This document shows, in pieces, positions 13,188 through 57,634 of a DNA stretch of 64,000 bases. Position 1 is the first letter of the stretch, and every line of letters starts with the position of its first letter. A program made the position numbers and the translations under genes. The notes beneath the pieces are model-generated. The model was given only the letters and a program-made list of their open reading frames with translations, made no database searches and had not been told where the DNA came from. Source of the stretch: Shigella phage B2; the sequence record OM858838. One strand, given 5' to 3'.

Positions 13188-16100
13188 TTAGTACAAACTC
13201 ACCAGAGGGTGTACTGTAAGTCCATTCAATGCTGTACCCATCCCAACGTTATAACTCAGACTACCAGTTACTAAGTTGGCTTCAGTAATGTTAGGTAATC
13301 CAGATTCAACACTGTTACCAAACATCAGGAACAATGCTCTCAATGGATTCTCTCTAATCGTTCTCAGAATGATTTTCTGGATACGAATCTTATAGTTCAG
13401 GAACCAAGTTAAACCAATAGCATCCAGATAGAATCTGGTACGACTTGGTAACACATCATAGTTCACGAACTCATCCATCACTCTGTTAAGCGCACTGTCT
13501 TTATCCATTGGATTACTCTTACGAGTAGTCAAATGTTTATACAATGAATACTTAGCAACAAAGTCACCATACTGGATTGAACGGTTCAGTAAGAAGTACA
13601 CGTTACTATCTCTTGAAAGGGTAACTTCCTTAGCAACACGTTTAACACTATCTGGAATACCAGATGTGTATTCATCCATCTTATTAAGTAATTTATCTTT
13701 CAATGAATAGTTATCTTGCTGTCCTAAATCCTCTGCAATGGTAGGCAGTAAACCTGCTTTGATTAAATCAGCAACAGGGTTACGAGCCTGAGAATCTTTC
13801 AGTTCTGAAATCTTTCTCTGATATTCGTCAGCCATTTTAGGATTATGGTTTACAGCCAGATAGTGAGAATACTCGTTAATCAGTTTCTCATTCTTTCTGT
13901 ACTCCTCAGCAGCCAGTACAGCAGTAGACATATCCTTAGCCATAGTCACAGGGCTTACACCAACAGTAGCTAAGTGAACCATGTTAGAAACAATGTTCGC
14001 TGCTGATACAACTATTGAACGAACTACAATCCAATCCTTCATTTCCTTCACGAATTCCATCAGACCACGTTCACCAAGTCTCAGATAGCGAGCAGCATTC
14101 TTACCTAAGAAGGTTTCAGCAATGCTGGTGAAAGCTTTCTGGAACTCTTTAGAGTAACCAGTCTGACCAGTCCACATATTCAGTACAGAAGGTTCACGAT
14201 AACCAAATGCGTTATTCAGTAAATCCTTACGTACTTTAATCTTACCATCAGGCCAAATCTTCTTAGCTTGTTCCTTCATCTCAATAGGCATCAGTTCATA
14301 AATCTCTTTTAACTGATGGTCTGTAGAGTTCTCATCCATAGTAATGTATTGGTATGCCCTGCCTTCTCTGGCATCCTTCACATACATTTCATGGAGTCTC
14401 TGGAGCAACATTTCATTGTATCTGGCTGCCTGAATCTCCTCAGCAATACGACCTTCCCAAGCACCGATTACCTTAGTGAAATCATTATCTACATCCAAAT
14501 GTGCTTCTTTGTTAGCTCTAGGCATCTGATATGAGTAACCCATAATTGAACCAGCACGATTCAATACAGGTTGCATATATGAGTTATTGCCAGTAGGCAT
14601 AGGAGCATTTGCATCAAATAAATTATCAATACTGCTTCTCTTACGAGTAGATAAATTATTCTTCTCAGTAGCTCTCCATATACCCGGAGTCATAGCACCA
14701 TTCACAGTTCTACCTGTAATTGGGTTTACTCCACCTACGGTGTTTTGCAGGGTACTCATTACACCAGCAATCCAACGAGGTTCACCACCATTGTTTGAAT
14801 GGTAGTAATACATTGGTTCCTTGTTGGTATCCTGTGGGTCACGAGCAACCTGAGCACCTCTGGTATACCCTCTACGAGATAAGCTTGGTTCATCTTTAAT
14901 AGATGCAATAATCACTTTCTTGTTAGGGTCTGACAGAGTAGGAGTAAATCCTTTAATCCCAGCTAGTGCTTGGTTTTGACCAGACTTAGCTAACTCTGCA
15001 CCCTGCAAGCTTGAATAATATTTGAGAGTGAAAGTCATCCCATTATTATTTGGTTCACCTTTAGTCATCTCTCTATTAATCAAATTACTTACAGTAGCAA
15101 TATCAGTCTGAGATAACTCTTTCAGTGCTGCCAGAGAAGCCATAGTATCAACCAATTGAGTAACAGTATTAACTGTTGCATCATTAGGTCTAACTCTGCC
15201 AGTACCAATTAAACGAGCAATAGCTGCTGCGTTAGGTAACTGATAAGCCAGTGGACTAACTCCATGAACCATTTGTTTAGCTAATCCATATGCAGACTTA
15301 ATATAGAAAGGAGCATTCTGTGCACCTGCTGTCTGCAATTGAGATTCAATAGAAGCAATCTCTTTAGCCAGTTCAGTTGGATTGGTTAAGAGTTCATTCA
15401 GTCGTGCCAAGTCATATCCATTGGCAAACAGATAAGCCATATCAGTATTAGCAACTACTCTCTGAATAGCTTCTTTCTCTGTTTGGTTCAGGGATACAAA
15501 TGTACTCTCAATCATACCCGGAACCATCTCACGAATAATCTGACGTGCTCTATCAGCAGCCATATTCTTCTGAGTCAGTAAGGTATGAATGGTGCTATTG
15601 GTTTCGTTAGAACCAATGAACTCATTAATCAGTTCAGCAACAGTACCTAACTTGCCATTCTGGTGAATGGTCATATAAATGTTAGTGATAGCATCACGTA
15701 CATCCTGAGCATCTTGGTCATTGAATACTGCTGAACCAGCAGTGATACCAAATGCTACAGACTTAGGTACTTTCTTCTCTACCTTGAGTAACTGTCTACG
15801 GATAGTGTGACCAAAGGATTTGAGTTTATCCTGAGTAGTATCAGTGATTTTCTCTGCACCTCTAACCAATCTACCAAACAGATTGTCTCTGGCTTCACTA
15901 TCAACATGACTAATATTCTTAGCCAGTTTAGTTAAGCGAGAAGCAACGTCAGTATTACCCAAAGACTTAGTAGCCAAACCCGATAACCAAGTAAGAATGG
16001 CATTGGTTAAATCACCAATACGTTCTCTCAGAGTTGTAGCTGGAGTCTGTCTGGTACGCTTAACACTAATCTGAGAAAGTTTATTTCTCAGTTGTTCATT

Positions 16101-19100
16101 GGTTTCTGCCAGTGCAATGAAGTTAGCCAGTCTATTAGTACGACCAGTAGCATCAGTAGTCACAGCAGTGTTACCAAATACAGCATCATATCTTTGTTTA
16201 GCTAATGCCATTTCACTAGCTGAACGATTATTAGGGTCAGTTAAGAAGTCTTCTACTTTCAAGGTATCTCTGGCTTGTGCATACAAACTACGTGCAACCA
16301 GAACACTTGGAGAAAAGTTCTCTAAACCATACTTCATAGAAACTTGCAGCATCTTGAATACAAATGCTTCTTTCTCACTCATGTTAAAACCATGAGCAAT
16401 CAATGCATTTGGAGAGTTATCAATCTCTGGGTCGATACTATCTACCAGAAGTTTTTCCTGATAATGGTCTAAACCAGAGATTTGCTGACCAGTATTCTTA
16501 ATCACTTTAATGATATTTGACTGGAGATAATCCAGTGTATCAGTCAAATGATTCACATGGTCTTGCGTAGCTTTACCAGCATCCAGTTTATTAAACAGAG
16601 TTTCTGCATCTAATCTATTGATGTTATTAGCATTGGTTTGAGCATAGCTAGTTTCATCATTAGATTTAACCGGATTAGTAGAGTCAGTTAAAGCAACTGT
16701 ATGCCCTAACAGACGTGACCAGTAAGAGGTAACATCTGGATTAGAGCCAATAGCAAACAGGCGCTTAATAGAATCAGCTAACTGTTTGAGTACATTGGTA
16801 ACAGTCCCAGCAATAGTCTTCTGAGTCATTGCATCAATCATTCTTGGGTTAACTAATCCCCATGCAATAAACTCAGCAGTAGCTTGAGACATATTACCAG
16901 AAGCGATATGAGTATTAATCAGGTCTACTACAGCATCAGTTTCTGGATTGGTGCTTGAATATTCATTCACAAACTTATTCATCAATCCTTCAATTGAAGC
17001 TACTTCTACTCTCTGAGCAGGAGTAATTGCTTCTGGATTGCTGTAATAGTTATGAACAGTATCAGCAGTAGCAGCATGAATTAACTCATGCATTACTGTC
17101 TCAATAGACTGAGAACCAATATAGATGTTCTGGCCTTGTGTAAGACCCAAGAACGTGTCATTAAACTCAACCTTAGTATCAGGTGTCATTTCCTGTTGAA
17201 CGCCTGAGAGAGCTTCTGGTGAGCCTACATACACATTAATATCATTAGGGATAGAATTGATAATCTTATCCAGAATGAAACCAGTGATTCTATTCTGGCG
17301 AGAAGGCAGAGATTTAGCTGCCTCTCTTACAGCAGCAACCACATCACCTTTAGCCAGAACTTTAACACCTTCATGACCTTTTACAGTTCTACCATTTCTA
17401 TCCAGAGCCTCAGTCATCTGACGAGTAGGAGGAATGGTTACTCTACCTTTAGGTAGAGATACAGAATCCATAGTAGGTAATTCAGTATTGGCTACTAACT
17501 GTTCCAGAGGAGTTCTGGTATCAGTTGCTTCTCCATCAGTCTGTTTACCATTCTTAACATTGAATGGAATATTGGCACCAGTCATCTGGTTAATGGAGGT
17601 AATAGCCTCACCACCTAACAGACCTTGTTTAATAGCAGTCTGAGTAGCAGCTTCTCTCTTAAGCAGAGTAGTGAATGCTTCAACCACTTCTGGACTAGTA
17701 GGTGCATTAGTTTCATCAGCACCAATCATTTCCATAATTCCACGGAAAGACTGTTCCAGACGAACATCTGCTTCTGGACCTAATTCCTCTGCCAGATTCA
17801 CTCCATCCATTGCTTGCTCAAAACGGTTAGTGAAATCTTGCAGTAAATCGAATTCATTCCAGCTTTGCAGAACACCTTGGTTAATAGCCTGAGAACCAGT
17901 ATCCAAATGAGATACAGCATTGATGTAGCCATCGAATACGTTCAGAGCATTGTTAGGATTGATATCACGAGCAATAGCCTGCATAGCTGCTTCTACAGAC
18001 TGAACCAGTAAAGGCATTACACGAGTACCCGGTTCAGTATAAGTAGGCATATCTACACCGAAGGTAGAACGACGCATCTTACCATCCAGTTCTCTACGTC
18101 CTCTGGATTCCATTCTGTGTACGTCAGATGGAACACGCCCTTCCTCACTCAGAAGAATACCTTCATTCAGCTTTTCAACATCTAAGTTGTTAGCAGTAAA
18201 CCAAGAATTGAAGATTGGCATTGAACCAATCAAGTAATTCTTAATGTCGTTGTACTGCTGCTGAGATAGAGATTCATATTTAGATAACTTACCTTCTTTA
18301 CGAAGTTCAGTTTCTAATCTCTCTACTTCTTTATTCCAACGAGACATGAATACTTCATGCATTACAGCAGCAGCATAGACCATCATCTTGCCACGATTAA
18401 CTACAGTACCAAATTCATTAGCAATGGATTCGTTTACTGCTGCACCAATACCAATCTTGATGTTCTGAGTAATAGCTTCGATTTGTTCACCGTCAAATTC
18501 AAACATAGTCACATCCTGACCTAAGTTGATAGGTGAACCAATCTGAACCCAAGAACCATTTCTGAATACCCGAGCAGTAGTCAGTTCATTAGTTGTATTA
18601 GTTAAGTCATTGATGTGTTCAATAGCAGCATCACGTTCTTCCTGATTAGTAGCTGCATCAACTGCTCTCAATGCTTCTGTGATTGCTTCGTAATATCCAT
18701 TAGCAATACCCATAGCAATCTTTCTATTGATTGCAGTAGCACCGCCTGAATAAACAGTTACTGTTACTGGATTCTTAAGTAAACCTCGACCAATCTGAAT
18801 TGGATGGTCTACATTTTCACCTTCAACAATATTCACATCACCAATCAGTTTGGATGCAGCAAGAGTAACCCTCATCTGATTCTTCAGACGTTCAATTTCA
18901 CGCATTTCTTTTTGCTGGAATTGACGTGGTTTATTCTTCATTGCAGCAATTCGGTTAGGAATATTTCTAACTGAATCCATCATTCTATTGATGTATTGCT
19001 GACTATCAGCAGCAGCAGTCTTATACAGGTCTAAGAATCCCGGTTCTTCAGCAGCATCATTATACAGACGGTCAGACTGCCCATAGAAGAAACCGCCCTT

Positions 19101-22100
19101 CTCCAATTTATTCAGTAAGTCCTGGTTCACATCTTTCAAACCAAGCTGAACAATGGAGTTAAATGGTCCATTAGTAACACCATCAAGCTCCAGCATTACA
19201 TGAGTCTGGAATGAGGTCTTACCTTGTTCTACAGCCAGTTCATATTGAGCCTGTGCATACAGAGCATGGAGAGTCTTAGTCTTCTCCTTACCTGCTTTAA
19301 CAGCCTGCAACAAAGTCTCAGCATCACTATCACTGATGGCATCCTGATTCTCAGCAGCTTTAAGGATATCGATAGCATCTCTGAACAGACCAGTACTGAT
19401 AGCTTTATTCAGTCTATCTCTGGCTGTTTCAGAAGACAGCTTATCAACAGCAATATCTAAGCCCTGAGCAATTGCATAATCAAGGAATGCACCATGCTGA
19501 GGGTTATTCAGTTCAATGGTAGATGGTTCAACAGTAACCAGTTCACGATGTAATTTAGCTGACTGAGGATTCAGGTCACCAGAGTTAAGCATCATACGGA
19601 AGTTACTGATTACGTTATAACCAAAGTAAACAGGAGTGGTAGCCAAAGGTAATCCAGCTTCAACCATTCTAGTTAAACCATTAACCAGAGTATTTATATC
19701 TCTTTCAATGGTACGGTTAGAACCCTGAATAGATTTCAGGTGAGCACCGTTAGTATTCTCTTCTGACTGAATGCCTAACATTCTACCAATCCACTGAGTA
19801 CCTAACTTATCAAGCATCAGGTCATGCAGACCCATGTTAATGAAGTGAGGTTGTTTGCTAGCTTTGTTACGAGCAGCAAGCATCTTCTCAGGGATATCCT
19901 GACCACCACCATTCTTAACTTTAGTGCTTTGACCTTTTGGTGGAGTACCAAAGTATGCACCTGCTCTTTCTCTCTGAGGATTAGTCAGTTGACCTAACAG
20001 GTCATTAGAATTCTGCATCAATTCTACTAAACGAGTAGCAGCAGGAGACTCTTCATTCATACGAATGAATACACGAGAGTTCTTCATGTTTGAGTCATTT
20101 ACTTTAGTAGAACCAACAGCAGCTAATTCAGAGTTTTTAACAACTGATTCCTGAACCAGATTAGCATTAATCATTACGTTCAATACTTCAGATGCCATTG
20201 CTTTAGACACAGCATCACGTACAGAGATAGGTGCATTAGGGTCTGCATTGATACCTAATACTCCAAAGATTTCTCTGCTTAAATCATCAATAACATTCTG
20301 ACGGTCAGTACCAACGTTACGCAGTAAGTCAGTCTGTTCTACAGTTGGCCTAGTCTTGTTATCTAAACCAAGAATATCCATTACTGTACGGTCATCATTG
20401 AATGTAGTTTCAGATGCATTACGTACAAACCACTGCATCATTCCAGCAGTCATTGCTTCAATTACTGGCTGCGGTAAGAAGTAAACATTCTCACCATTGA
20501 TGTTTCTAACTTCATCAAAGTACTCAACAGGATAAGTTTCCCAGAAGATACGCTGACCTTCAGGAGTTAATTTACCCCAAGACTGAATCAGAGATTGTTC
20601 AATAGCAGGGACTAAACCAGCAAACTGACGAAGTACATTTACTTCTTTCTCAGTTACTTGTTCTGGTTTGATATAACCTTTAAACAGATTCTGAATCTGA
20701 GTAATAGGATTAGAACCATTAGTAAAGATGCTATTAAGTCTCCCAGAGAAATTAGAAGTTCTCAGGAAAGCTGAACGTTTACCGGTAGGTTTAAACCATT
20801 TCTTAACTTGGTTTGTAGCTTGATATTCTTTATCTACATCAGAAGTAGACTTAGCATCAGAGCGTATTGTCTCTGCTTGCAGTCCATTCAGAATGTCATA
20901 GTTAACACCTTTCTCTGAACCAAGGTCTAATTGAGACTCATCCATCAGGTCAGTTTCTACATCAGTAGGTTTTTCCTGTAACTGGATATCAGATTCTACA
21001 GTATCTGGTTTCTCAAACAGTTCACCCTGTACAGGTTCAGTACGTACAGCTTCCTCAGACGCTACTGGCTGAGTTATTTCAGGCTGTACTGGTGTTTGTA
21101 CCTCTTCCTGAGAAGTCTGCTCAGAAGTCTCTACAGGAGCTTCTACAGTAGTCTGCTGAGATACAGGTTGAGGGAAAGTATTCCTGACGTGGTTCAGGAA
21201 ATCAGTACGTGCCTGAGAAGGTGTAGCCCATACTTCACGAGTACTACGTAAACTGAAGATATGCCCATCTGGTGTCATAACGTAAGGTACATTAGTGTCA
21301 CCATAATTAAAGGAAGACAGAACATCCTGTTTACCAGTAACTGTGTCCTCTCCAGGAATAATAGTAGTTTTACCACCATTAACCGGAACGGCACGAATAC
21401 CCCCCATGTCTTTACCAATAGCAATATAGTCTTTGCCATTATAGGTAAAGTACTGACCTAACTGCATATACAGTGCCTGCTGCTGTCCAGTAAATTCAGC
21501 AGATTTCATCTCAGGACCGGCAGGGATACCACTAGAAGTAGTCTGCTGAGGAGCTGGTTTAGTTTCTTTTTTAACAGGTGCAGATTCCTGAGTCTGGTTG
21601 TTCACTTCTTCAGAAGCAACAGGAGCAGACTGTGCAGGGATATCTACAGGTTTACCATCTACCAGTTGACTGGTAAGGGTATGAGCCAGTCTTACTGCAT
21701 CAGCATCATTACGAATCTCTTGGATTAATCCTTTAGAACGTACCGGATGGTACGTCATTGGATTTCCATCGAGAGACAGGTATGGCTGACCAGTAGTAGG
21801 ATTAATTACTTCTACAGGTTGATTTCCAGTAAAGTTCTGAGCAGCTTGGTCAAAGGCAGCAGCCTTAGTTTCCATATGTTCAGCAAAGCGATTCAGGTGG
21901 TCTAACAGACCCTGAGCACGAGCAGTATCACCTAATGATAATGCACGGAAGATACCTTGCTGATATTGCTGGATACCAATAAAGCCATCCGAACCTTCAC
22001 GTACATCTTTACCTACTTGGCTCATAGCCTTACCAGTAGCAGAGATGACCTTAAGTTTATCCACATCCTGCTGACTTAAACCAAGAGTATCAGCAGAGTT

Positions 22101-24413
22101 AACTAAACGGTCAGCTACATCTGGAGTAATAGAAGATGCATCTAAGTTCATCTGAGCCAGAACAGATTTAACATTCTTCTGAACTTCAGGAGATTTGTAA
22201 GTCTCTGGAGTAATCTCAGAAGGTAATGATTCCATGACTTTAGTCATTTCATCAGGAGTCAGTTTAAATCCTTCAGCAGTAGTCTTAACTGCCTGTACAT
22301 CAGGATGATTCAGTACAGCATTAATATTATCAATAGCAGTCTGATACTGAGCTTTCTGGTCTTCTGGAGCAGCATCCATCTGTGCCTGAATCTGAGGTAA
22401 TGCTTCTTCATATGCAGAGATAACACTGTTACCAACAGTAGCTAAATCTCTACGAGAAGCTTCATCTAGATTACGTTCTTTAATGGCACGAGAGATTCTC
22501 AGAATAGAATCAGGAGAACTGATTTCTTCTTCTGGAATAGCTTTGAATACTTCTTTGGCAGCAGGTTCAGTAACAGCATCTACAGCTTTAGTAGTTACAG
22601 TTGGTTCTACTGGCGCTTCAGTATTAGTTTGTGGGGCAGCTTGTTTAACTGATTCATTGGCAGCAGATACAGTATTTCTAAAGTCTTGTGCTCTGCTTTC
22701 AGTTCTACGAGTCTGTCTTGCATCAAATGCTGTACGACCTTGTTGAACTCCTTCTTGGATTGCTCTAGGTGTCTCACTGATAGCTGAACCAACAGCACCC
22801 ATACCCGCACCAGCAATAGCAGATTCAGCAACGTTTGAACCAATACCCTCAATGAGGGATTGAGATTCGTCAGCAGAGCTACGTACCCCGAGATTAGAAG
22901 CGAACTGACCAGAAGCGCCCTGTAATGCTTCCTCAACAGTCTCTTTAGCAGCATTCTGTGAAACCCTTGAAGATGCAGCCAGTAATCCTTTACCTTCCAG
23001 TAAAGATGGAGTTAACAGACGTGATTCAAAGGGAGCAGCAACCTTACCAGTTAATGCACCTAAAGTACCTGCCACAGCAGAAGTAACATTACCTGCTTGA
23101 GTACGTACCTGACTTCTAGCCTGAGATGGTGTAGCACCTTCAGCAATAAGGTCACGATACATTGGTGATTTTTCAGCTAACTGAGCATCAGTTAATTTAT
23201 CAATCTCATCCAGTGACTGTTGAGCATTTGAACCAGCTTCTTGGAAACCAACGTAACCAATAAATGCTCTTTCAGCAGCATCCTGTAGACGCTTTCTACC
23301 AAACTCAGTAGCAGCTAATTTAGTAGCAAAGTCCTCACCATACTCTTGAGCCAATTGCTTCAAAGCACCACGAGTAGCTAACTTACCTACGATACCACCA
23401 GTCAGTAAGTCTGGAGCAGATTCAGCAATCAGAGTAGTTAATGCACCTGGTGAAGTACCATACTGTTCAGCAGTATTAACGAACTGACGTAACTGTTCCT
23501 TAGCACCAGCTACTAATGGATTATCACCTTTAGCAATATCAGCAGCTTCTCTTGCTGCACCGCCTTGTTCAAAGCGTTGCTTATTGGCTTCGATAACAGA
23601 TTGTTCATATTGAACAGCAGGAGAATACTGAGAACGCTGTTCATCAACGAATTCTTTTAATGGCTTATCAATACCTGCTTGGTCTAACAGAGTAGGTTGC
23701 CCTACTTGGTCTTCTTGACCAGTAACATTAGCAATTAAATCCTGAGCATTCTGTAATGCTAAGTTACCTAAACTAGTAGCAAATCTTGCAGTATTACCTG
23801 CCCATACTTGGGCAGCATTACCAATGTCTGAAAGTTCCATAGGAGCATTTTCAAACTGGTCTGTATTAGCTTGAGCAATATTTAATGCAAGTTTGTCTCT
23901 AGCCGCTTGAGGACCATACTTCTGCTGTAAAGCAGAGATAGGCATATCTTTTAAATCAGCAAGATATTGGTCATTTGGATTAGTCTGTGCAGCTTGATTA
24001 GGAGCTACATAGTTAGGATGACTTGGGTCAAAAGGACCAGTACCACCAAATTCAGGAGATACTTGAGGATTAATCATCCTACGATAGAAAGGCTTAGTTG
24101 CTGCAATAGCATCATAGTTAGCCTGCATATCAGGAGTGGTTGGTTGAGTCTCAGGAATATTAAAATTATTAATATTCTGACCAGTCAACATTGCCTGCAT
24201 CTGTTCACGAGTATATTTAGGACCAGATTCAGCCAGACGAATAGCTTCCTGTCCTCTCTGATATTCAGGAGAACCTACAGGGAAATCTGTTTCTACTCCG
24301 GGTACTGGAGCACCCATCTCTACTTGTTTCTGCTGAGTGGCTTGATTTAGTTGTTGTGTTTTTTGTAAATCAACTCCAGCTAATTGTTGTTCTTTTTCAA
24401 ATCCGGTAGCCAT
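13188..24413 (-). CDS. virion RNA polymerase (N4 gp50-like vRNAP)
   Basis: 3741-aa ORF, the N4-like hallmark; T7-like motif B candidate IGRGLLKNPVTVTVYSGG; RBS GAGGA before start. Confidence 0.8.
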   Translation of the reverse strand: MATGFEKEQQLAGVDLQKTQQLNQATQQKQVEMGAPVPGVETDFPVGSPEYQRGQEAIRLAESGPKYTREQMQAMLTGQNINNFNIPETQPTTPDMQANYDAIAATKPFYRRMINPQVSPEFGGTGPFDPSHPNYVAPNQAAQTNPNDQYLADLKDMPISALQQKYGPQAARDKLALNIAQANTDQFENAPMELSDIGNAAQVWAGNTARFATSLGNLALQNAQDLIANVTGQEDQVGQPTLLDQAGIDKPLKEFVDEQRSQYSPAVQYEQSVIEANKQRFEQGGAAREAADIAKGDNPLVAGAKEQLRQFVNTAEQYGTSPGALTTLIAESAPDLLTGGIVGKLATRGALKQLAQEYGEDFATKLAATEFGRKRLQDAAERAFIGYVGFQEAGSNAQQSLDEIDKLTDAQLAEKSPMYRDLIAEGATPSQARSQVRTQAGNVTSAVAGTLGALTGKVAAPFESRLLTPSLLEGKGLLAASSRVSQNAAKETVEEALQGASGQFASNLGVRSSADESQSLIEGIGSNVAESAIAGAGMGAVGSAISETPRAIQEGVQQGRTAFDARQTRRTESRAQDFRNTVSAANESVKQAAPQTNTEAPVEPTVTTKAVDAVTEPAAKEVFKAIPEEEISSPDSILRISRAIKERNLDEASRRDLATVGNSVISAYEEALPQIQAQMDAAPEDQKAQYQTAIDNINAVLNHPDVQAVKTTAEGFKLTPDEMTKVMESLPSEITPETYKSPEVQKNVKSVLAQMNLDASSITPDVADRLVNSADTLGLSQQDVDKLKVISATGKAMSQVGKDVREGSDGFIGIQQYQQGIFRALSLGDTARAQGLLDHLNRFAEHMETKAAAFDQAAQNFTGNQPVEVINPTTGQPYLSLDGNPMTYHPVRSKGLIQEIRNDADAVRLAHTLTSQLVDGKPVDIPAQSAPVASEEVNNQTQESAPVKKETKPAPQQTTSSGIPAGPEMKSAEFTGQQQALYMQLGQYFTYNGKDYIAIGKDMGGIRAVPVNGGKTTIIPGEDTVTGKQDVLSSFNYGDTNVPYVMTPDGHIFSLRSTREVWATPSQARTDFLNHVRNTFPQPVSQQTTVEAPVETSEQTSQEEVQTPVQPEITQPVASEEAVRTEPVQGELFEKPDTVESDIQLQEKPTDVETDLMDESQLDLGSEKGVNYDILNGLQAETIRSDAKSTSDVDKEYQATNQVKKWFKPTGKRSAFLRTSNFSGRLNSIFTNGSNPITQIQNLFKGYIKPEQVTEKEVNVLRQFAGLVPAIEQSLIQSWGKLTPEGQRIFWETYPVEYFDEVRNINGENVYFLPQPVIEAMTAGMMQWFVRNASETTFNDDRTVMDILGLDNKTRPTVEQTDLLRNVGTDRQNVIDDLSREIFGVLGINADPNAPISVRDAVSKAMASEVLNVMINANLVQESVVKNSELAAVGSTKVNDSNMKNSRVFIRMNEESPAATRLVELMQNSNDLLGQLTNPQRERAGAYFGTPPKGQSTKVKNGGGQDIPEKMLAARNKASKQPHFINMGLHDLMLDKLGTQWIGRMLGIQSEENTNGAHLKSIQGSNRTIERDINTLVNGLTRMVEAGLPLATTPVYFGYNVISNFRMMLNSGDLNPQSAKLHRELVTVEPSTIELNNPQHGAFLDYAIAQGLDIAVDKLSSETARDRLNKAISTGLFRDAIDILKAAENQDAISDSDAETLLQAVKAGKEKTKTLHALYAQAQYELAVEQGKTSFQTHVMLELDGVTNGPFNSIVQLGLKDVNQDLLNKLEKGGFFYGQSDRLYNDAAEEPGFLDLYKTAAADSQQYINRMMDSVRNIPNRIAAMKNKPRQFQQKEMREIERLKNQMRVTLAASKLIGDVNIVEGENVDHPIQIGRGLLKNPVTVTVYSGGATAINRKIAMGIANGYYEAITEALRAVDAATNQEERDAAIEHINDLTNTTNELTTARVFRNGSWVQIGSPINLGQDVTMFEFDGEQIEAITQNIKIGIGAAVNESIANEFGTVVNRGKMMVYAAAVMHEVFMSRWNKEVERLETELRKEGKLSKYESLSQQQYNDIKNYLIGSMPIFNSWFTANNLDVEKLNEGILLSEEGRVPSDVHRMESRGRRELDGKMRRSTFGVDMPTYTEPGTRVMPLLVQSVEAAMQAIARDINPNNALNVFDGYINAVSHLDTGSQAINQGVLQSWNEFDLLQDFTNRFEQAMDGVNLAEELGPEADVRLEQSFRGIMEMIGADETNAPTSPEVVEAFTTLLKREAATQTAIKQGLLGGEAITSINQMTGANIPFNVKNGKQTDGEATDTRTPLEQLVANTELPTMDSVSLPKGRVTIPPTRQMTEALDRNGRTVKGHEGVKVLAKGDVVAAVREAAKSLPSRQNRITGFILDKIINSIPNDINVYVGSPEALSGVQQEMTPDTKVEFNDTFLGLTQGQNIYIGSQSIETVMHELIHAATADTVHNYYSNPEAITPAQRVEVASIEGLMNKFVNEYSSTNPETDAVVDLINTHIASGNMSQATAEFIAWGLVNPRMIDAMTQKTIAGTVTNVLKQLADSIKRLFAIGSNPDVTSYWSRLLGHTVALTDSTNPVKSNDETSYAQTNANNINRLDAETLFNKLDAGKATQDHVNHLTDTLDYLQSNIIKVIKNTGQQISGLDHYQEKLLVDSIDPEIDNSPNALIAHGFNMSEKEAFVFKMLQVSMKYGLENFSPSVLVARSLYAQARDTLKVEDFLTDPNNRSASEMALAKQRYDAVFGNTAVTTDATGRTNRLANFIALAETNEQLRNKLSQISVKRTRQTPATTLRERIGDLTNAILTWLSGLATKSLGNTDVASRLTKLAKNISHVDSEARDNLFGRLVRGAEKITDTTQDKLKSFGHTIRRQLLKVEKKVPKSVAFGITAGSAVFNDQDAQDVRDAITNIYMTIHQNGKLGTVAELINEFIGSNETNSTIHTLLTQKNMAADRARQIIREMVPGMIESTFVSLNQTEKEAIQRVVANTDMAYLFANGYDLARLNELLTNPTELAKEIASIESQLQTAGAQNAPFYIKSAYGLAKQMVHGVSPLAYQLPNAAAIARLIGTGRVRPNDATVNTVTQLVDTMASLAALKELSQTDIATVSNLINREMTKGEPNNNGMTFTLKYYSSLQGAELAKSGQNQALAGIKGFTPTLSDPNKKVIIASIKDEPSLSRRGYTRGAQVARDPQDTNKEPMYYYHSNNGGEPRWIAGVMSTLQNTVGGVNPITGRTVNGAMTPGIWRATEKNNLSTRKRSSIDNLFDANAPMPTGNNSYMQPVLNRAGSIMGYSYQMPRANKEAHLDVDNDFTKVIGAWEGRIAEEIQAARYNEMLLQRLHEMYVKDAREGRAYQYITMDENSTDHQLKEIYELMPIEMKEQAKKIWPDGKIKVRKDLLNNAFGYREPSVLNMWTGQTGYSKEFQKAFTSIAETFLGKNAARYLRLGERGLMEFVKEMKDWIVVRSIVVSAANIVSNMVHLATVGVSPVTMAKDMSTAVLAAEEYRKNEKLINEYSHYLAVNHNPKMADEYQRKISELKDSQARNPVADLIKAGLLPTIAEDLGQQDNYSLKDKLLNKMDEYTSGIPDSVKRVAKEVTLSRDSNVYFLLNRSIQYGDFVAKYSLYKHLTTRKSNPMDKDSALNRVMDEFVNYDVLPSRTRFYLDAIGLTWFLNYKIRIQKIILRTIRENPLRALFLMFGNSVESGLPNITEANLVTGSLSYNVGMGTALNGLTVHPLVSLY

Positions 24414-50343: not shown

Positions 50344-50360
50344 ATACTTCACACATCCAT

Positions 50361-50373
50361 GAGTCTTCGACTC
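50361..50373 (+). promoter_or_regulatory. TTC-loop hairpin + GTGGAG (vRNAP-type promoter candidate)
   Basis: gagtc-ttc-gactc then ta-gtggag, ~45 nt upstream of 50419 ORF. Confidence 0.4.
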
Positions 50374-51173: not shown

Positions 51174-51203
51174 ACTTACTTCGTAAGTATCTCACTTCGT
51201 GAG
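51174..51203 (+). promoter_or_regulatory. tandem pair of TTC-loop hairpins (promoter candidates)
   Basis: acttac-ttc-gtaagt and ctcac-ttc-gtgag, 3 nt apart. Confidence 0.4.
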
Positions 51204-52200: not shown

Positions 52201-52446
52201 TTGCTAAAGGAGAGGATGATGATGATGCGTAAGTCATTACATGTAGGTACTAAAACTGATGTTATTAAACGTCGCTCTAAACCAGTATTAGATGTGGAAT
52301 TTTTACATGTACGTATTAGTGAAACTTATAATGAATGTGGTCAGATGATTGCTGCTGGTGTTAATCCTTATGCTGCTGTTGTAGCTATGGATACCAAGCT
52401 CAGTCGTATTGTTACATTCAATCATCCTAATCTTCTGAACATGTAA
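52201..52446 (+). CDS. hypothetical protein
   Basis: 81-aa ORF. Confidence 0.3.
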   Translation: MLKERMMMMRKSLHVGTKTDVIKRRSKPVLDVEFLHVRISETYNECGQMIAAGVNPYAAVVAMDTKLSRIVTFNHPNLLNM

Positions 52447-52453
52447 TATCTTC

Positions 52454-52470
52454 ATCACCGTCTTCGACGG
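52454..52470 (+). promoter_or_regulatory. TTC-loop hairpin + GTGGAG (vRNAP-type promoter candidate)
   Basis: caccgtc-ttc-gacggtg followed immediately by gtggag. Confidence 0.45.
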
Positions 52471-52506
52471 TGGTGGAGTTCTCCCTTAAGTTCTCCTTCT
52501 CCTGTA

Positions 52507-52521
52507 AGAGCGACTTCGTCG
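52507..52521 (+). promoter_or_regulatory. TTC-loop hairpin + GGTGGA (vRNAP-type promoter candidate)
   Basis: agcgac-ttc-gtcgct followed by ggtggaa; ~45 nt upstream of 52565 ORF. Confidence 0.45.
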
Positions 52522-52564
52522 CTGGTGGAATAATCCAATTCAATTAACTATCGAGGTAATTATC

Positions 52565-52981
52565 ATGGCAGTATTAAACGGTTCTAACAACGCTTCTTCT
52601 ATCATCGGTGCTGCTCTGGGTGGTAAACCTGCTGCTGGTGCACAGCGTCCACAAGCTGAAGTATTTATCAACGTTGGTATCAACGTACAGATGCCTAACG
52701 AAGAAGGTGAGATGGTTGATACCTTCCTGTCTCTGCCTTTCGGCCTGCCGTTGGATACCATGAATGAACTGGTGATTCGTGGTAATAACCAGCAGTGGAA
52801 TGAGCAGGCTGCTGCTCGTAATGAGCTTCTGAAAGCTCTGGTCAAAATGGGTGAAGCTCTGGATGCTGGTACTGGTACAGAGATGCCTAAGCTCAGTGTT
52901 CAACTGTATCGCCGTAAGGCTCAGGAAGAACATCAGGCCAGCAACAACGCAATGGCTCAGATTCTGGCTGCATTGAGCTAA
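52565..52981 (+). CDS. early protein, host-like codon usage
   Basis: 138-aa ORF with ctg/cgt/ggt-rich codons, flanked by two hairpin promoter candidates and a strong terminator. Confidence 0.55.
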   Translation: MAVLNGSNNASSIIGAALGGKPAAGAQRPQAEVFINVGINVQMPNEEGEMVDTFLSLPFGLPLDTMNELVIRGNNQQWNEQAAARNELLKALVKMGEALDAGTGTEMPKLSVQLYRRKAQEEHQASNNAMAQILAALS

Positions 52982-52990
52982 TCGAATAAT

Positions 52991-53019
52991 GGGATACCTT
53001 CGGGTATCCCTTATTTTTT
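52991..53019 (+). terminator. rho-independent terminator
   Basis: gggatacc-cttc-gggtatccc then ttatttttt. Confidence 0.8.
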
Positions 53020-53028
53020 GGAGGGGAC

Positions 53029-53211
53029 ATGCGTGTATTAGCAGTGTTAATTCTGTTTCTAGTTATCTTCGGGAAACTAGTACTCAATGTTATCGAAGAA
53101 GATACAGTGCAATACCAGCATCAAATGAAATGCGTCAAAGAGAAGATTGCCAACGGGATTCCTCGTAGTGCAATCAAGTTAACTACTGATTCATGTGAGG
53201 TTATCAAATGA
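53029..53211 (+). CDS. small membrane protein
   Basis: 60 aa, N-terminal hydrophobic helix. Confidence 0.35.
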   Translation: MRVLAVLILFLVIFGKLVLNVIEEDTVQYQHQMKCVKEKIANGIPRSAIKLTTDSCEVIK

Positions 53212-53375
53212 ATTTATTCTTGTTGTTAGTGTTCATCGTGCTGCGCACGCTCATTGGGTTGTTCTGGTTTGTAGTGGAAATGGTATGGTTCCTGTTCTGC
53301 GTAATGATTGGAATCCTATCTTTACCCTATTACTTAGGTGTCATCATCAGAGCAGTAGCTAAGCCCTCGAAATGA
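53208..53375 (+). CDS. small membrane protein (55 aa)
   Basis: ATGA overlap with upstream stop; MNLFLLLVFIVLRTLIGLFWFVV...; below track cutoff. Confidence 0.35.
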   Translation: MNLFLLLVFIVLRTLIGLFWFVVEMVWFLFCVMIGILSLPYYLGVIIRAVAKPSK

Positions 53376-53405
53376 GGGCTATATTACGCTTAAGGTAGAT
53401 AGTCA

Positions 53406-53609
53406 ATGAATGGAGATTTGATAGATATATTAGAACTAATAGTTGTTCTCAAATTAGGTAATAGAAATAAAGTATGTAACCACATAATGATACATAGAAT
53501 GTGTAATGATATTCCATGTAGTGAATGCCTACTTAATACAAGTAAAGTATATATTTCTGACTATCCAATTCAAATCATTGAAATGAAAGGTAAGCTAAAT
53601 GAACAATGA
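53406..53609 (+). CDS. small four-Cys protein, paralog family member 1
   Basis: MNGDLIDIL... with C-x8-C-x4-C-x2-C. Confidence 0.5.
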   Translation: MNGDLIDILELIVVLKLGNRNKVCNHIMIHRMCNDIPCSECLLNTSKVYISDYPIQIIEMKGKLNEQ

Positions 53610-54243: not shown

Positions 54244-54316
54244 GGGCTATCAATATTGGTAGTCCAATATTAATGTCTCGTTAGATAGTTGTACTTCAAT
54301 CCAAGAGGATATCAAT

Positions 54317-54556: not shown

Positions 54557-54564
54557 GAGAAGTA

Positions 54565-54987: not shown

Positions 54988-55000
54988 CAGCCTTCGGCTG
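54988..55000 (+). promoter_or_regulatory. TTC-loop hairpin + GGTGAA (promoter candidate)
   Basis: cagcc-ttc-ggctg then ttctggtgaa, ~30 nt upstream of 55031 ORF. Confidence 0.35.
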
Positions 55001-55745: not shown

Positions 55746-55968
55746 ATTAATTACCATTTTAAATGGAATATATAATTTACCTGAACGCAAAGACTACGCT
55801 CCAAAAGAGTACATATGTGATTTAATCATATGTCCTGATGTACTTTGCAGTAATTGTCCAATGGGCAACCCACATTATTTAAATCCTGACAAAGAATTAT
55901 TTGTCACTCAAATCCATAAAACATTGGAAGTCATGAACCATGAAACAAGAAACTCAACTCCTGATTGA
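55738..55968 (+). CDS. small four-Cys protein, paralog 8
   Basis: MDKLITILNGIY..., C-x4-C-x4-C-x2-C. Confidence 0.45.
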   Translation: MDKLITILNGIYNLPERKDYAPKEYICDLIICPDVLCSNCPMGNPHYLNPDKELFVTQIHKTLEVMNHETRNSTPD

Positions 55969-56863
55969 ATCTATGTTCAACCGTCACCAATCTCGTGACC
56001 TAATTAGAAATGAAATTAGAACTTCACCTGAAGTTATGGAGTTAGTTAGTGCTGCTGTAGATAAAGCACTGGAATGGGTAGAAGGTGATTACTTTGAAAG
56101 TAAGAACAAACGTCTGGCATTATTGGATACCAATATCCTAGAAGACTTCTACATTGATGTTGCTGGTTCATTGGCTCAATTTGGTAAGGCTAAGTATACC
56201 CAGATAGTAGGTATGGTATCTGGAATGATTTCTACTATGCCTCAGAAAGAGGCTATAAGGACTGCTGGAGAGCTTATCTCATTAGCAGCTATGGTAGACC
56301 TCATTGACCTGATTCCAGCCTCTATGAGCGTTACAGGCTCTATGGAACTGGTATCCCGTATACAGCTTGAACCAAAGACATTGGAACTGATTAACCAGTA
56401 TCAATATCTGCCTCCTATGCTTGTTCCCCCTGAACCAGTTAAATCAAATACTGGTAGTGGGTATCTGTCCATCAAATGGGATTCCCTGATTCTGAAGAAG
56501 AATCATCATGAGTTTGATATCTGTTTGGATAATATCAACAGATTTAACTCAGTAGCTTTCTCTCTGGATGACCGTGTAATCCGTAATATTAGGGATAACC
56601 GTAAACATCTGGATAGTGCTAAAGCTGATGAATCTGCTGATGAGTACAAAGCACGAGTTGATTCATTTCTGAAAATGGAAAAGGAATCTATGCGTGTATT
56701 TGCAATGCTCATCAATGAAGGGAACAGATTCTATCTGACTCACAAGTATGACAAACGAGGTCGTACTTACTGTCAGGGCTATCATGTCTCCTACCAAGGG
56801 AATACCTATCGTAAAGCTATTCTTGAATTAGCTGATAAAGAAATCGTACCCATTGAGGAATAA
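55940..56863 (+). CDS. RNA polymerase II small subunit candidate
   Basis: 307-aa ORF lying 770 bp upstream of the catalytic subunit gene, matching the two-gene RNAP II layout of N4-like phages; assignment is positional. Confidence 0.45.
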   Translation: MKQETQLLIESMFNRHQSRDLIRNEIRTSPEVMELVSAAVDKALEWVEGDYFESKNKRLALLDTNILEDFYIDVAGSLAQFGKAKYTQIVGMVSGMISTMPQKEAIRTAGELISLAAMVDLIDLIPASMSVTGSMELVSRIQLEPKTLELINQYQYLPPMLVPPEPVKSNTGSGYLSIKWDSLILKKNHHEFDICLDNINRFNSVAFSLDDRVIRNIRDNRKHLDSAKADESADEYKARVDSFLKMEKESMRVFAMLINEGNRFYLTHKYDKRGRTYCQGYHVSYQGNTYRKAILELADKEIVPIEE

Positions 56864-56865
56864 TC

Positions 56866-57006
56866 ATGTTTTGCATTATTACAGCAGCATATCTACGTCT
56901 TAAGAATAAGGTAGATGAAGATATAGTAATTGGTTCATGGCTTGCTGGTTTATTAGAGCTATGTCTTGAAGTACCAATGATTTTAACTTTAGCAGGTAAA
57001 CTTTAA
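56866..57006 (+). CDS. small hydrophobic ORF (46 aa)
   Basis: Tight coupling to flanking genes. Confidence 0.25.
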   Translation: MFCIITAAYLRLKNKVDEDIVIGSWLAGLLELCLEVPMILTLAGKL

Positions 57007-57242
57007 TGGCTGAATTATCCAAACCAGAACAACTCATTAAGATTACGCTATTACTGCGTGATATTCCTGATGAGTTAGAAAAACATTTCTGTAGTACTCA
57101 TCCTGCATGTGAAAAGTTTTGTGGTGCTGAGCATGACAAAACTAAATGTGCATTGTTCTATCTCTCTGAAGAAGAGATTAAGAAAACCATCTTTGGTCTA
57201 GATGCAGCAGGGAGGATGCTGGGAATCATTCCTGATGAATAA
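57006..57242 (+). CDS. small Cys-containing protein
   Basis: 78 aa with C-x5-C-x3-C-x7-C; possibly a divergent relative of the paralog family. Confidence 0.4.
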   Translation: MAELSKPEQLIKITLLLRDIPDELEKHFCSTHPACEKFCGAEHDKTKCALFYLSEEEIKKTIFGLDAAGRMLGIIPDE

Positions 57243-57417
57243 GGAATTAGTATTAATTCTTAGAGAATTGAAAAAAGCATCTGAAATACAAAACTCATGT
57301 TTTGGAACTAATTTCAGAGATTTTTCATGTACAAATGTTGATTGCCCTCAATGTATATTAAGTAACGTTAATAAATCTTTCAGATATTCAAGCCAAATTG
57401 TATTGGTGAATCTATGA
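57235..57417 (+). CDS. small four-Cys protein, paralog 9
   Basis: Start at internal ATG 57235; MNKELVLILRELKK..., C-x9-C-x4-C-x2-C. Confidence 0.45.
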   Translation: MNKELVLILRELKKASEIQNSCFGTNFRDFSCTNVDCPQCILSNVNKSFRYSSQIVLVNL

Positions 57418-57626
57418 ATGATGAATTGATTCTTATATTGGATTCATTCAGAAATTATTCAGTTAAAGATGGCTCATGTAGAGGAGATATATTCAATTTA
57501 ACAGGAACTTTTACACGTACACAGCAATGTGATGGCAAGTGTATTTCATGCCCATTAGTACAAATACGTGATAAAAAAATATATCCAGACCAAATCATTA
57601 TAACTTTCTCTCAACTAAATAAGTGA
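57414..57626 (+). CDS. small four-Cys protein, paralog 10
   Basis: MNDELILILDSFR..., C-x16-C-x3-C-x2-C, YPDQIIITFSQL. Confidence 0.5.
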   Translation: MNDELILILDSFRNYSVKDGSCRGDIFNLTGTFTRTQQCDGKCISCPLVQIRDKKIYPDQIIITFSQLNK

Positions 57627-57634
57627 GACTCAAG

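Follow-up and report, generated by a model that had tools for sequence, protein, structure and literature searches.

Organization of the gp2 region

The sequence analysed here (the window) is a 64,000-nucleotide stretch of Shigella phage B2 (OM858838). It derives from an N4-like phage (Schitoviridae, Ithacavirus-like) that is 97–99% identical to the Salmonella phages UTK0001/2 and FSL SP-058, and the region under study shows 78–81% identity to the corresponding regions of Pollock, Pylas, MY01, KpCHEMY26 and TR2. Positions 52454–53019 contain two tandem inverted repeats, a gene of 138 codons, and a stem-loop followed by a T run, as listed below.

52456..52472, + strand: distal candidate hairpin promoter P-gp2a (hairpin 1), CACCGTC-TTC-GACGGTG, with a perfect 7-bp stem
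52475..52477, + strand: predicted start GGA of P-gp2a; +1 at 52475, 11 nt from the loop centre at 52464, by analogy with N4 P1–P3
52509..52523, + strand: proximal candidate hairpin promoter P-gp2b (hairpin 2), AGCGAC-TTC-GTCGCT, with a 6-bp stem
52527..52529, + strand: predicted start GGA of P-gp2b; +1 at 52527, giving a leader of 38 nt
52553..52556, + strand: Shine-Dalgarno sequence GAGG, 8 nt 5' of the ATG and invariant among the aligned relatives
52565..52981, + strand: N4 gp2 homologue of 138 aa (PF26984 Phage_N4_Gp2; PHROG 4099), a predicted ssDNA-binding RNAPII cofactor
52991..53019, + strand: predicted intrinsic-type terminator, stem-loop GGGATACC-TTCG-GGTATCCC at 52991–53010, then TTATTTTTT

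Some 2.2 kb separate the gene from the presumed left end, a poly-C tract at position 1 of the SP-058 record, and five other early ORFs precede it. A previous inspection of the letters and open reading frames (the sequence-only reading) had described the region as a self-contained early cassette of a double hairpin, a 138-aa gene and a strong terminator. The ORF (52565–52981) is indeed present, and the region forms a compact unit of putative promoters, gene and terminator at the left end, where the early genes of the phage lie.

Two hairpins upstream of gp2 follow the N4 promoter grammar

The stems of hairpins 1 and 2 are separated by 36 nt and their loop centres by 52 nt, in good agreement with the two tandem TTC-loop hairpins, 37 nt apart, that had been noticed earlier. 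When folded as ssDNA, both hairpins were more stable than shuffled sequences on both strands (z −2.7 to −4.5). On the sense strand, hairpin 1 has an imperfect stem extension spanning 52450–52478, and as RNA this sense stem reaches 13 bp via G·U pairs (−22 kcal/mol), whereas pairing on the template strand is limited to the 7-bp core.

The promoter rules were drawn from a 2015 review (PMC4496689), according to which N4 requires, on the template strand, a 3'G:C5' closing pair, a loop with 5'G and 3'A, A or G at −11, G at −10, G at −8 and C at +1. In N4, the template −8G is contacted by R904. We scanned the non-template strand for C-TYC-G in a stem of 5 bp or more, with a G (+1) placed 11 nt from the loop centre. 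Within its first 9 kb, N4 had only three such sites, at 94, 563 and 4552, which are taken here as P1–P3; the site at 563 matches the published P2 oligonucleotide. The window contained five (50365, 51195, 52462, 52514 and 54992), all on the + strand, all intergenic and all in the early region, and its − strand gave no match to the grammar. By comparison, 500 dinucleotide-preserving shuffles of the window had a mean of 0.02 sites and a maximum of 1. The five hairpins thus lie at 50.36–55.0 kb by the presumed left end, in a window that also encodes a virion RNA polymerase (vRNAP) ORF. The three sites outside the gp2 region are as follows.

50361..50373, + strand: further putative hairpin promoter, GAGTC-TTC-GACTC then TAGT-GGA, before the gp1-like gene 50419–50760; the N4 P1 equivalent
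51191..51203, + strand: hairpin promoter candidate, CTCAC-TTC-GTGAG then TAAT-GGG, before a DUF4326 gene
54988..55000, + strand: hairpin promoter candidate, CAGCC-TTC-GGCTG then TTCT-GGT, before a macro-domain/phosphatase gene and the RNAPII genes; by position, the N4 P3 equivalent

Both gp2 hairpins have the 5–7-bp stem and 3-nt loop of N4-type promoters. Their template loop is 5'-GAA-3' with a C:G closing pair (non-template C-TTC-G), and at the sequence level both have a template C at +1, 11 nt from the loop centre (non-template G at 52475 and 52527, within T-GGA). T-GGA is found at the predicted transcription start of three of the five window hairpins and at that of N4 P1 and P2, and N4 P3 has T-GGT. 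The GTGGA of hairpin 1 (within −4 to +3) is common to the proximal hairpin and the gp1 promoter. The −8 rule of N4 does not hold in this phage: on the template strand hairpin 1 has T and hairpin 2 has A at this position, and none of the five window hairpins has G, so the polymerase of this lineage would have to read the stem differently. We predict from these sequence features that both gp2 hairpins are N4-type vRNAP early promoters, read on the template strand. The sequence-only reading had correctly placed hairpins before the gene but had not recognised them as DNA promoters of this type.

Conservation and covariation of the hairpins

In an alignment of relatives, 6 of the 13 base pairs in the stems of hairpins 1 and 2 had changed on both sides, and 96% of cells were paired; the lineages that contribute independently to this covariation are few (TR2 in the case of hairpin 1, a single metagenomic contig in that of hairpin 2). 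None of 500 shuffles did as well, and slid controls were 16–76% paired. This test excluded the 37 distinct hairpins that the grammar scan had yielded, because pairing was a criterion by which they had been selected. In TR2, hairpin 1 carries two compensatory pairs and has lost one outer pair. Hairpin 2 is invariant in seven related phages and, together with the leader, nearly invariant across Pollock, Pylas, MY01, KpCHEMY26 and TR2; a more distant relative has AAGCCC/GGGCTT in its place. In the GenBank records examined the hairpins are never annotated as promoters, and that of Pylas labels the hairpin 1 homologue a terminator.

A hairpin of this kind preceded gp2 in 12 of 12 genomes examined, all of which had been retrieved via the gene or the region and not via the hairpin. 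Six unrelated stems were found before gp2 homologues (AGCGAC, AAGCCC, GGGGC, CACGGAC, CGCAC and AAGAAGC). In a survey of six other genera, Gamaleyavirus and Kaypoctavirus had a single N4-like hairpin before gp2, and Erwinia S6, Axy10, ZC03 and RHEph22 had no hairpin of this grammar there, indicating that their promoters must differ.

The 138-aa protein belongs to the N4 gp2 family

A homology search, which had been proposed together with the original description, placed the product in the N4 gp2 family (PF26984). BLASTP against N4 gp2 gave E = 3e-15 with 33% identity over 111 aa, and PHROG 4099 was matched at E = 1.8e-40. The copy of Pfam-A that was scanned contains no PF26984 model and returned no match for the 138-aa protein; precomputed PF26984 assignments are attached to the 100%-identical cluster protein P0001, to other close relatives and to relatives of N4 gp2. 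GenBank notes on relatives read "N4 gp2-like" or "gp2; similar to N4". Homologues were found solely in N4-like phage genomes or in phage-sized contigs (~70 kb).

N4 gp2 is an ssDNA-binding protein that recruits RNAPII to middle promoters, binds without sequence specificity and is required for middle transcription (PMC4496689). We therefore predict that the 138-aa protein is an ssDNA-binding cofactor that recruits the phage RNAPII to middle promoters. The term "effector" used in the sequence-only reading named the wrong class, because the homology points to a cofactor of the phage's own middle transcription and not to a host-directed effector.

Structural comparison added little to this assignment. 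A sequence search of the PDB with the single protein and with a 42-sequence family profile gave chance-level matches only (E ≥ 0.26), and no match of the profile to Drc, the RNAPII cofactor of LUZ7, was among them. The AlphaFold2 model built from the family alignment had a mean pLDDT of 61 and a pTM of 0.41; at that confidence it consists of a beta-hairpin (38–56), a helix (76–98) and disordered ends. Foldseek with this low-confidence model found nothing in the PDB at E ≤ 0.001, and its top matches were meaningless. Because the model is weak and has no fold relatives, the biochemical function is read from the 33% identity to N4 gp2.

Codon usage and terminator of the unit

The gene had been described as host-codon, that is, markedly E. 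coli-like in its codon choice. CTG accounts for 67% of its Leu codons (20% in the other ORFs), CGT for 80% of its Arg codons (47%) and GGT for 92% of its Gly codons (62%). The E. coli codon adaptation index (CAI), calculated with Sharp-Li weights, was 0.526 for the gene against a window mean of 0.274 (sd 0.104), ranking 5th among 88 ORFs in the CAI check that had been suggested. When the same protein was recoded with window-wide synonymous usage, none of 20,000 simulations reached the observed CAI (z = +8.1). The GC content of the gene is 48.7%, the second highest of the 88 ORFs, versus 39.6% for the window.

The immediate neighbours lack this bias (z +1.4, −0.6 and −2.0). It is also present in the major head protein gene (z +12.9), the SSB gene (+5.5), the gp1-like gene (+3.8) and two other genes. 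Since the bias is common to the major head protein, SSB and gp1-like genes, it marks high expression and not host origin. Thus, E. coli-like codon usage was confirmed, but a host-like origin was not, given a family that occurs in N4-like phages and a bias shared by capsid and SSB genes.

Downstream of the gene, the predicted terminator consists of a stem of 8 bp, five of them GC pairs, a TTCG loop and the T run TTATTTTTT, the hairpin and U run of an intrinsic terminator. Its RNA folds at −17.1 kcal/mol (z −3.6), and none of 200 shuffles was as good. The near-perfect terminator said to close the unit is therefore supported by stem, T run and fold energy. A homologous terminator follows gp2 in N4; the TTCG loop is shared, and the stem is kept through compensatory changes from N4 to the window phage.

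Phage polymerases and a proposed course of early transcription

The polymerases that would act before and after the gp2-like protein are both encoded in the window.

13188..24413, − strand: virion RNA polymerase gene, 3741 aa, the predicted reader of the hairpin promoters
55940..58861, + strand: RNAPII subunit genes, gp15-like (55940–56863) and gp16-like (57635–58861), the predicted partners of the gp2-like protein

The vRNAP is 24% identical to that of N4 and retains the catalytic residues D559, K670, Y678 and D951 of N4 mini-vRNAP. At such divergence, the position aligned to R904 also seems to hold an Arg, and the N-terminal "−11 recognition" segment of N4 mini-vRNAP (K114, R119 and W129) gave no alignment to the window vRNAP at 24% identity. 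The two gene products 15 and 16 correspond to the heterodimeric RNAPII with which the gp2 family is associated.

Taken together, we consider it very probable that 52454–53019 constitutes the early transcription unit for gp2 in an N4-like phage, composed of tandem hairpin promoters, a gp2 homologue and a terminator. This assignment draws on the promoter grammar and its enrichment, on conservation and covariation, on protein homology and on codon bias. By analogy with N4, we infer that both hairpins fire, that transcripts begin at the sites given above, and that the protein binds ssDNA and recruits RNAPII. After injection, host gyrase supercoiling would extrude both inverted repeats as hairpins. 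The vRNAP carried in the virion would then bind the template-strand hairpin and start at the template C 11 nt downstream (52475 and 52527), and both transcripts would encode one protein, the gp2 homologue, and end at the terminator (52991–53019), which may keep the transcription flux on the gp2 gene alone. The gp2-like protein would bind ssDNA and bring the two-subunit RNAPII to middle promoters, resulting in the early-to-middle switch. Because coating amounts of the protein would be needed from few injected polymerases, the unit appears to be built for output: its promoter is doubled, its codons are optimal, its ribosome-binding site is good and a terminator closes it. The high early expression proposed in the sequence-only reading is likewise predicted here: the two promoters, the codon adaptation, the strong terminator and the precedent of LUZ7 all point in that direction.

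Alternative interpretations

The role of the distal hairpin is the point at which another interpretation deserves most weight. Only the proximal hairpin (52509–52523) might be the gp2 promoter, with the distal one acting mainly or also as an RNA stem-loop that ends or stabilises the transcripts of an upstream operon. That operon extends from the 51195 hairpin to the stop codon at 52444–52446. This would fit the 13-bp sense-RNA stem, which exceeds the 7-bp template core and is kept in TR2 with a different 5' arm, and it would also fit the start of the stem 4 nt past the upstream stop codon, the terminator label in Pylas, and the single hairpin before gp2 in N4 and more distant relatives. However, the distal hairpin lacks a U run (the next bases are GTTCTCCCTTAAG) and receives no call in the terminator scan. 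It also conforms to the promoter grammar, with C-TTC-G and a correctly spaced T-GGA, where 0.02 sites are expected per window, and its GTGGA is that of the proximal hairpin and the gp1 promoter. We regard a distal hairpin that is not a gp2 promoter as unlikely, and the promoter and RNA stem-loop roles are in any case mutually compatible.

The remaining two interpretations are much less probable. In one, the hairpins act as RNA leader structures affecting translation or mRNA stability, with transcription coming from a host sigma-70 promoter or from upstream read-through. In its favour, transcripts started at the distal site or further upstream would carry hairpin 2 as an RNA stem-loop. Yet a sigma-70 scan found no such site between 51255 and 53578, and an Rfam scan of 52300–53200 gave no match. 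Folding of the whole leaders showed no advantage over shuffles (z −0.55 and −0.30), and a structured RNA leader is rejected on that basis. The conserved features are those of a DNA promoter (the TTC loop, the closing C:G and GGA at a fixed distance), and four different genes whose leaders are unrelated are preceded by this motif. We therefore consider this explanation very improbable. A recent acquisition of the gene from the host or another GC-richer source, whose codons and GC would then reflect foreign origin, is the least probable of all. It would account for the GC of 48.7% against 39.6% and for the host-preferred codons, and the similarity blocks with other phages, which start at hairpin 1 and stop just past the terminator, resemble the behaviour of a mosaic module. 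Against it, every homologue found is in an N4-like phage genome or a ~70-kb phage-sized contig, and the Pfam family itself is Phage_N4_Gp2. From N4 to the window phage, gp2 keeps the same early position, promoter type and terminator, and core genes that are no recent imports have the same codon bias, among them those for the major head protein (z +12.9) and SSB (+5.5). Tandem vRNAP promoters driving a phage-borne gp2 gene thus remain our preferred interpretation.

Implications

Beyond this, we put forward a broader proposal only tentatively, and judge it possible but rather doubtful. The distal hairpin may be bifunctional, a vRNAP promoter through its 7-bp template stem and, through its 13-bp G·U-containing sense-RNA stem-loop, an element that ends or protects upstream transcripts; the doubling of the gp2 promoter in Humphriesvirinae and Triduovirus may have arisen independently of the tandem before LUZ7 Drc; and the vRNAP of this lineage may read the stem differently. 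If so, the two groups would have converged on the same means of producing coating amounts of an RNAPII cofactor from the roughly four polymerase molecules that are injected. Apart from this proposal, the gp2 unit adds a second case of predicted tandem hairpin promoters before an RNAPII recruiter, with an unrelated cofactor, which supports the idea that the amount of cofactor limits the early-to-middle switch.

The early promoters of Ithacavirus, Pollockvirus, Pylasvirus and Triduovirus carry no annotation in the public records examined, and one is labelled as a terminator. The grammar of C-TTC-G, a stem of at least 5 bp and GG 11 nt from the loop centre has almost no background and may be of practical use in annotation and phage engineering. 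Early start sites can be predicted from it, and at least one start codon that was probably mis-called moves from 51206 to 51233. The natural promoter variants at template −8 (T, A or G; A, T or C on the non-template strand) offer material for studying how divergent vRNAPs read hairpins.

Comparison with known systems

The unit is of a known kind, the N4-type early unit, and reveals no new kind of system. Its nearest relatives in organization are Pollock, Pylas, MY01 and KpCHEMY26 (Humphriesvirinae) and TR2 (Triduovirus), which have an orthologous double hairpin, leader, gene and terminator, with an upstream neighbour gene that differs between them.

The P2-gp2-terminator unit of N4 (NC_008720, ~555–1110) has the same gene family, promoter type and left-end early position. 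The promoters share the 3-nt loop, the C:G closing pair, a purine at −11, G at −10, A at −12, C at +1 and the 11-nt spacing, and in both phages a TTCG-loop terminator lies directly 3' of gp2. The two differ in several respects. N4 has one promoter before gp2, whereas the window phage has two, 52 nt apart, and the number of hairpin promoters is three in N4 and five, as candidates, in the window phage. The template loop GAA of the window phage is that of N4 P1, whereas N4 P2 has GGA, and the template −8 base of the gp2 hairpins is T or A in place of the G required in N4. Furthermore, gp2 is the second gene in N4 but follows five early ORFs in the window phage, and the two gp2 proteins are only 33% identical.

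The gene for the RNAPII cofactor Drc of LUZ7 is preceded by a tandem pair of start sites, 33 nt from each other, that rank among the strongest early ones (PMC9163698). There, drc is the most expressed phage gene, with up to 64% of phage transcripts, and gp01 and Drc together make up 90% of early transcripts (PMC9163698). The logic is the same as that predicted for the window phage, tandem hairpin-type vRNAP promoters before an ssDNA-binding RNAPII cofactor (drc, gp14), and in LUZ7 expression was determined by ONT-cappable-seq (PMC9163698). The promoter spacing is 33 nt in LUZ7 versus 52 nt in the window phage, and LUZ7 transcripts start 13–14 nt from the hairpin centre versus the predicted 11 nt. 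PSI-BLAST did not relate Drc to gp2, and the two have been treated as distinct SSB types (PMC7145618).

Organization of the gp2 unit

The gp2 unit consists of a double hairpin, a gene for a 138-aa gp2-like protein and a terminator. The sequence-only reading had described a self-contained early cassette at 52454-53019, and its coordinates were borne out when the hairpins, GAGG, ORF and terminator were all located on re-reading the sequence.

Features of the gp2 unit
52456-52472: hairpin 1 (distal), CACCGTC-TTC-GACGGTG, a perfect 7-bp inverted repeat with a TTC loop
52509-52523: hairpin 2 (proximal), AGCGAC-TTC-GTCGCT, a perfect 6-bp inverted repeat with the same TTC loop
52553-52556: GAGG, ribosome-binding site
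52565-52981: gp2-like ORF, 138 codons
52991-53019: terminator, an 8-bp GC-rich stem with a TTCG loop, then TTATTTTTT

The hairpins are separated by 36 nt between stems and 52 nt between loop centres, and as single-stranded DNA either strand folds with z-scores of -2.7 to -4.5 against dinucleotide shuffles. The terminator RNA folds at -17.1 kcal/mol, a value matched by none of 200 shuffles. It is the conserved counterpart of the N4 terminator after gp2, GGACTACC-TTCG-GGTAGTCC-TTTTT, with an invariant loop and a stem conserved through compensatory changes.

The gp2 region was 97-99% identical to Salmonella phages vB_SenP_UTK0001/2, FSL SP-058, SP-076, As2, SP154 and S5, and 78-81% identical to Escherichia phage Pollock, Klebsiella phages Pylas, MY01 and KpCHEMY26, and Salmonella phage TR2, all of them Schitoviridae, the N4-like phages. 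The window also encodes both N4-type transcription enzymes.

Phage polymerase genes
13188-24413, - strand: virion RNA polymerase (vRNAP) ORF, 3741 aa, with the catalytic D559, K670, Y678 and D951 of N4 mini-vRNAP conserved
55940-56863 and 57635-58861: both subunits of an N4-type RNAPII, the two-subunit phage polymerase

Hairpins 1 and 2 as predicted N4-type promoters

According to a 2015 review of the N4 polymerases (PMC4496689), N4 vRNAP recognises a template-strand hairpin whose 3-nt loop has G at its 5' end and A at its 3' end and is closed by a 3'G:C5' pair; -11, at the centre of the loop, must be a purine, -10 and -8 must be G, and +1 must be C. On the non-template strand this becomes C-TYC-G followed by G 11 nt after the loop centre; the numbering was checked against the N4 genome sequence and against the P2 oligonucleotide given in PMC13492108. 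Our scan asked for C-TYC-G enclosed by a perfect stem of 5 bp or more and followed by GG at +1/+2. Exactly three such sites occurred in the first 9 kb of N4 (94 before gp1, 563 before gp2 and 4552 before gp15), which were taken to be the early promoters P1-P3, site 563, the published P2, being the sole one matched to a printed sequence. In the window, the scan gave five on the + strand and none on the - strand.

Candidate promoter sites in the window
50365, + strand: before the gp1-like gene
51195, + strand: before a DUF4326 gene
52462 and 52514, + strand: hairpins 1 and 2, before the gp2-like gene
54992, + strand: before the macro-domain gene preceding the RNAPII genes

In 500 dinucleotide-preserving shuffles of the window, both strands together yielded a mean of 0.02 sites and a maximum of 1, and the cruder pattern CTYCGN7TGGA gave 3 matches in the window versus 0.40 expected. 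At -1 to +3, both hairpins 1 and 2 read T-GGA, the very sequence that N4 P1 and P2 have there. By their sequence, hairpins 1 and 2 are predicted N4-type early promoters, with predicted transcription starts at 52475 and 52527. None of the five window sites has the -8 G required in N4; at template -8, hairpin 1 has T and hairpin 2 has A. An Arg of the window vRNAP appears aligned to N4 R904, the -8G contact, in an alignment of 24% identity. The N-terminal segment with which N4 vRNAP recognises -11 does not align with the window enzyme. An RNA-leader structure and a sigma-70 promoter upstream of the gp2-like gene were also considered and rejected.

Conservation of the hairpins

We aligned the 138 nt upstream of the gp2 start codon from eight genomes. 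Hairpin 2, the TGGAATAATCC after it and the ribosome-binding site were invariant in seven; in the eighth, a metagenomic contig with a 61% identical gp2, AGCGAC/GTCGCT was replaced at the same position by AAGCCC/GGGCTT, a swap of four compensatory pairs with the leader kept. Hairpin 1 was identical in six genomes, and TR2 showed two compensatory pair changes (C:G to T:A and T:A to G:C). Over both hairpins, 96% of cells were paired and 6 of the 13 pairs had changed on both sides, which none of 500 shuffles reached; slid controls were 16-76% paired. Further contigs, retrieved via their gp2 proteins and not via the hairpin, each had one grammar hairpin before gp2, with the unrelated stems GGGGC, CACGGAC and CGCAC; the N4 stem there is AAGAAGC. 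The distal hairpin was limited to the Ithacavirus, Pollockvirus, Pylasvirus and Triduovirus group, with a single hairpin before gp2 in N4, Gamaleyavirus and Kaypoctavirus and no grammar hairpin in four more distant genera surveyed.

A terminator function has been ascribed to hairpin 1, whose homologue is labelled 'terminator' in the Pylas record (MH899585, 2545-2577). The hairpin starts 4 nt past the upstream stop codon. In sense RNA its stem extends through G.U pairs to 13 bp (-22 kcal/mol), and TR2 retains a 13-bp stem built with another 5' arm; on the template strand the stem is limited to the 7-bp core. On the other hand, hairpin 1 lacks a following U run and carries the full promoter grammar. 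It is unlikely to be a terminator only, and a dual role as promoter and terminator is possible, if rather doubtful. By the same grammar, Pylas 2545-2577 is a candidate vRNAP promoter.

In a comparison of 52441-53048 with related records, similarity blocks with most related phages start at hairpin 1 and stop just past the terminator. A mosaic joint coincides with the hairpin promoter. Upstream of the unit, the window and Pollock have an N4 gp6-like ORF, SP-058 has a different small ORF, and Pylas, MY01 and TR2 have a SLOG/'GTP-binding' gene.

The gp2-like protein and its codon usage

The 138-aa product aligned with N4 gp2 over 111 residues (E = 3e-15, 33% identity), a likeness also stated in the GenBank notes of Pollock and SP-058. 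Pfam PF26984 (Phage_N4_Gp2) is assigned to an identical protein in a large protein collection, to its relatives and to relatives of N4 gp2; the protein also matches PHROG 4099, a group without assigned function. An alignment of 42 family members has an invariant core around N36, G38 and S56-L57-P58-x-G60-x-x-L63-D64. No solved structure related by sequence was found, and a low-confidence AlphaFold2 model returned no fold relative. N4 gp2 is a sequence-independent ssDNA-binding protein that is necessary for middle transcription; it also binds RNAPII, bringing this enzyme to melted middle promoters (PMC4496689).

The sequence-only reading had also proposed host-like codon usage for this gene, and the bias proved real and strong. 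CAI was calculated with Sharp-Li E. coli weights for 88 non-overlapping ORFs called in the window. The gp2-like ORF scored 0.526 (window mean 0.274, sd 0.104), ranking fifth of 88, and its GC content (48.7% versus 39.6% for the window) was the second highest. Its Leu codons were CTG in 67% of cases, compared with 20% elsewhere; the figures were 80% and 47% for CGT among Arg codons, and 92% and 62% for GGT among Gly codons. None of 20000 recodings of the same protein with window-wide synonymous frequencies reached the observed CAI (z +8.1), whereas the flanking genes were unbiased (z +1.4, -0.6 and -2.0).

Other ORFs with high CAI
Major head protein: z +12.9
N4 gp45-type SSB: z +5.5
gp1-like early gene: z +3.8
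63020-63469, + strand: TerD-like protein, 149 aa, PHROG 632 'tellurite resistance'; z +7.4, CAI 0.639, highest in the window
46728-47336, + strand: 202-aa protein, PHROG 9325, function not assigned; z +9.8, CAI 0.577, second

Because these ORFs include the head protein, the SSB and the gp1-like gene, the bias is the phage's own high-expression signature and no sign of foreign origin. A host origin of the gene was rejected, the homologues found all belonging to N4-like phage genomes or phage-sized contigs and the capsid and SSB genes showing the same bias. Expression of the TerD-like and 202-aa proteins is presumably very high. Among the early genes, high CAI is confined to the gp1-like and gp2-like genes, whose promoters share the start region GTGGA; the other two hairpins (ATGGG and CTGGT) precede genes of ordinary codon usage. 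GTGGA appears to correlate with high CAI of the downstream early gene.

Neighbouring features

Counting stems of 5 bp or more, the whole window has ten C-TTC-G hairpins on the + strand and none on the - strand (shuffles, 0.38 for the two strands combined). Five are the promoter candidates, and at least one, at 62192, is terminator-like with a T run; the others lie at 44302, 45081, 51179 and 59802. A second adjacent TTC-loop pair occupies 51179-51203 (+), where ACTTAC-TTC-GTAAGT stands 16 nt before CTCAC-TTC-GTGAG; only the second hairpin has GG at +1, and the first is missing from FSL SP-058. The predicted start of the 51195 hairpin, 51208, falls within ATG 51206, the start codon in the equivalent SP-058 annotation (ORF 51206-51544, +). 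The true start codon is probably the in-frame ATG 51233; the annotated start of the equivalent Pylas gene lies 25 nt after the predicted +1.

Directly 3' of the gp2 unit, 53406-54965 (+) holds six or seven small ORFs of 57-81 aa (GC 26-29%), Cys-containing and with similar N-termini (M-N-x-[DE]-L-x-[LI]-I-L...), several matching the same PHROGs of unassigned function (32354, 16571). Judged by sequence, they look like a tandem paralogue family.

A poly-C tract just before the gp1 hairpin promoter (50330-50346, considered together with 49800-50330) resembles the poly-C near the N4 left end, and the FSL SP-058 record has its position 1 at about 50334 of the window. The window therefore crosses the physical genome end, in a permuted or circularised assembly.

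Proposed mechanism and comparison with known systems

By analogy with N4, supercoiling by the host gyrase would extrude the hairpins, host SSB would melt the non-template hairpin, and vRNAP would bind the template hairpin and initiate with GTP at +1. Two promoters would feed one short gene, and the strong terminator would return the polymerase. Promoter doubling, optimal codons and the conserved leader would be expected because the gp2-like product would be required in amounts that coat ssDNA and recruit RNAPII. Genes at 53029-54965, which have no hairpin of their own, may be transcribed by polymerases that read through the terminator, or else from middle promoters.

A measured precedent for tandem promoters, with the same unit logic, is drc of phage LUZ7, the functional analogue of gp2. 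Upstream of drc, two hairpin promoters spaced 33 nt apart are among the strongest early start sites of LUZ7. Up to 64% of phage transcripts come from drc, and gp01 and Drc together account for 90% of the early ones (PMC9163698). The literature regards Drc and gp2 as unrelated (PMC7145618), and neither a family-profile search of PDB sequences nor a fold search with the low-confidence model found a link between Drc and the gp2 family. The promoter assignment for this phage group, the five-promoter layout, the -8 deviation and the sense-strand extension of hairpin 1 were not on record in the sources searched; they are refinements within a well-understood system, in which the gp2 unit is the counterpart of N4 P2-gp2-terminator.
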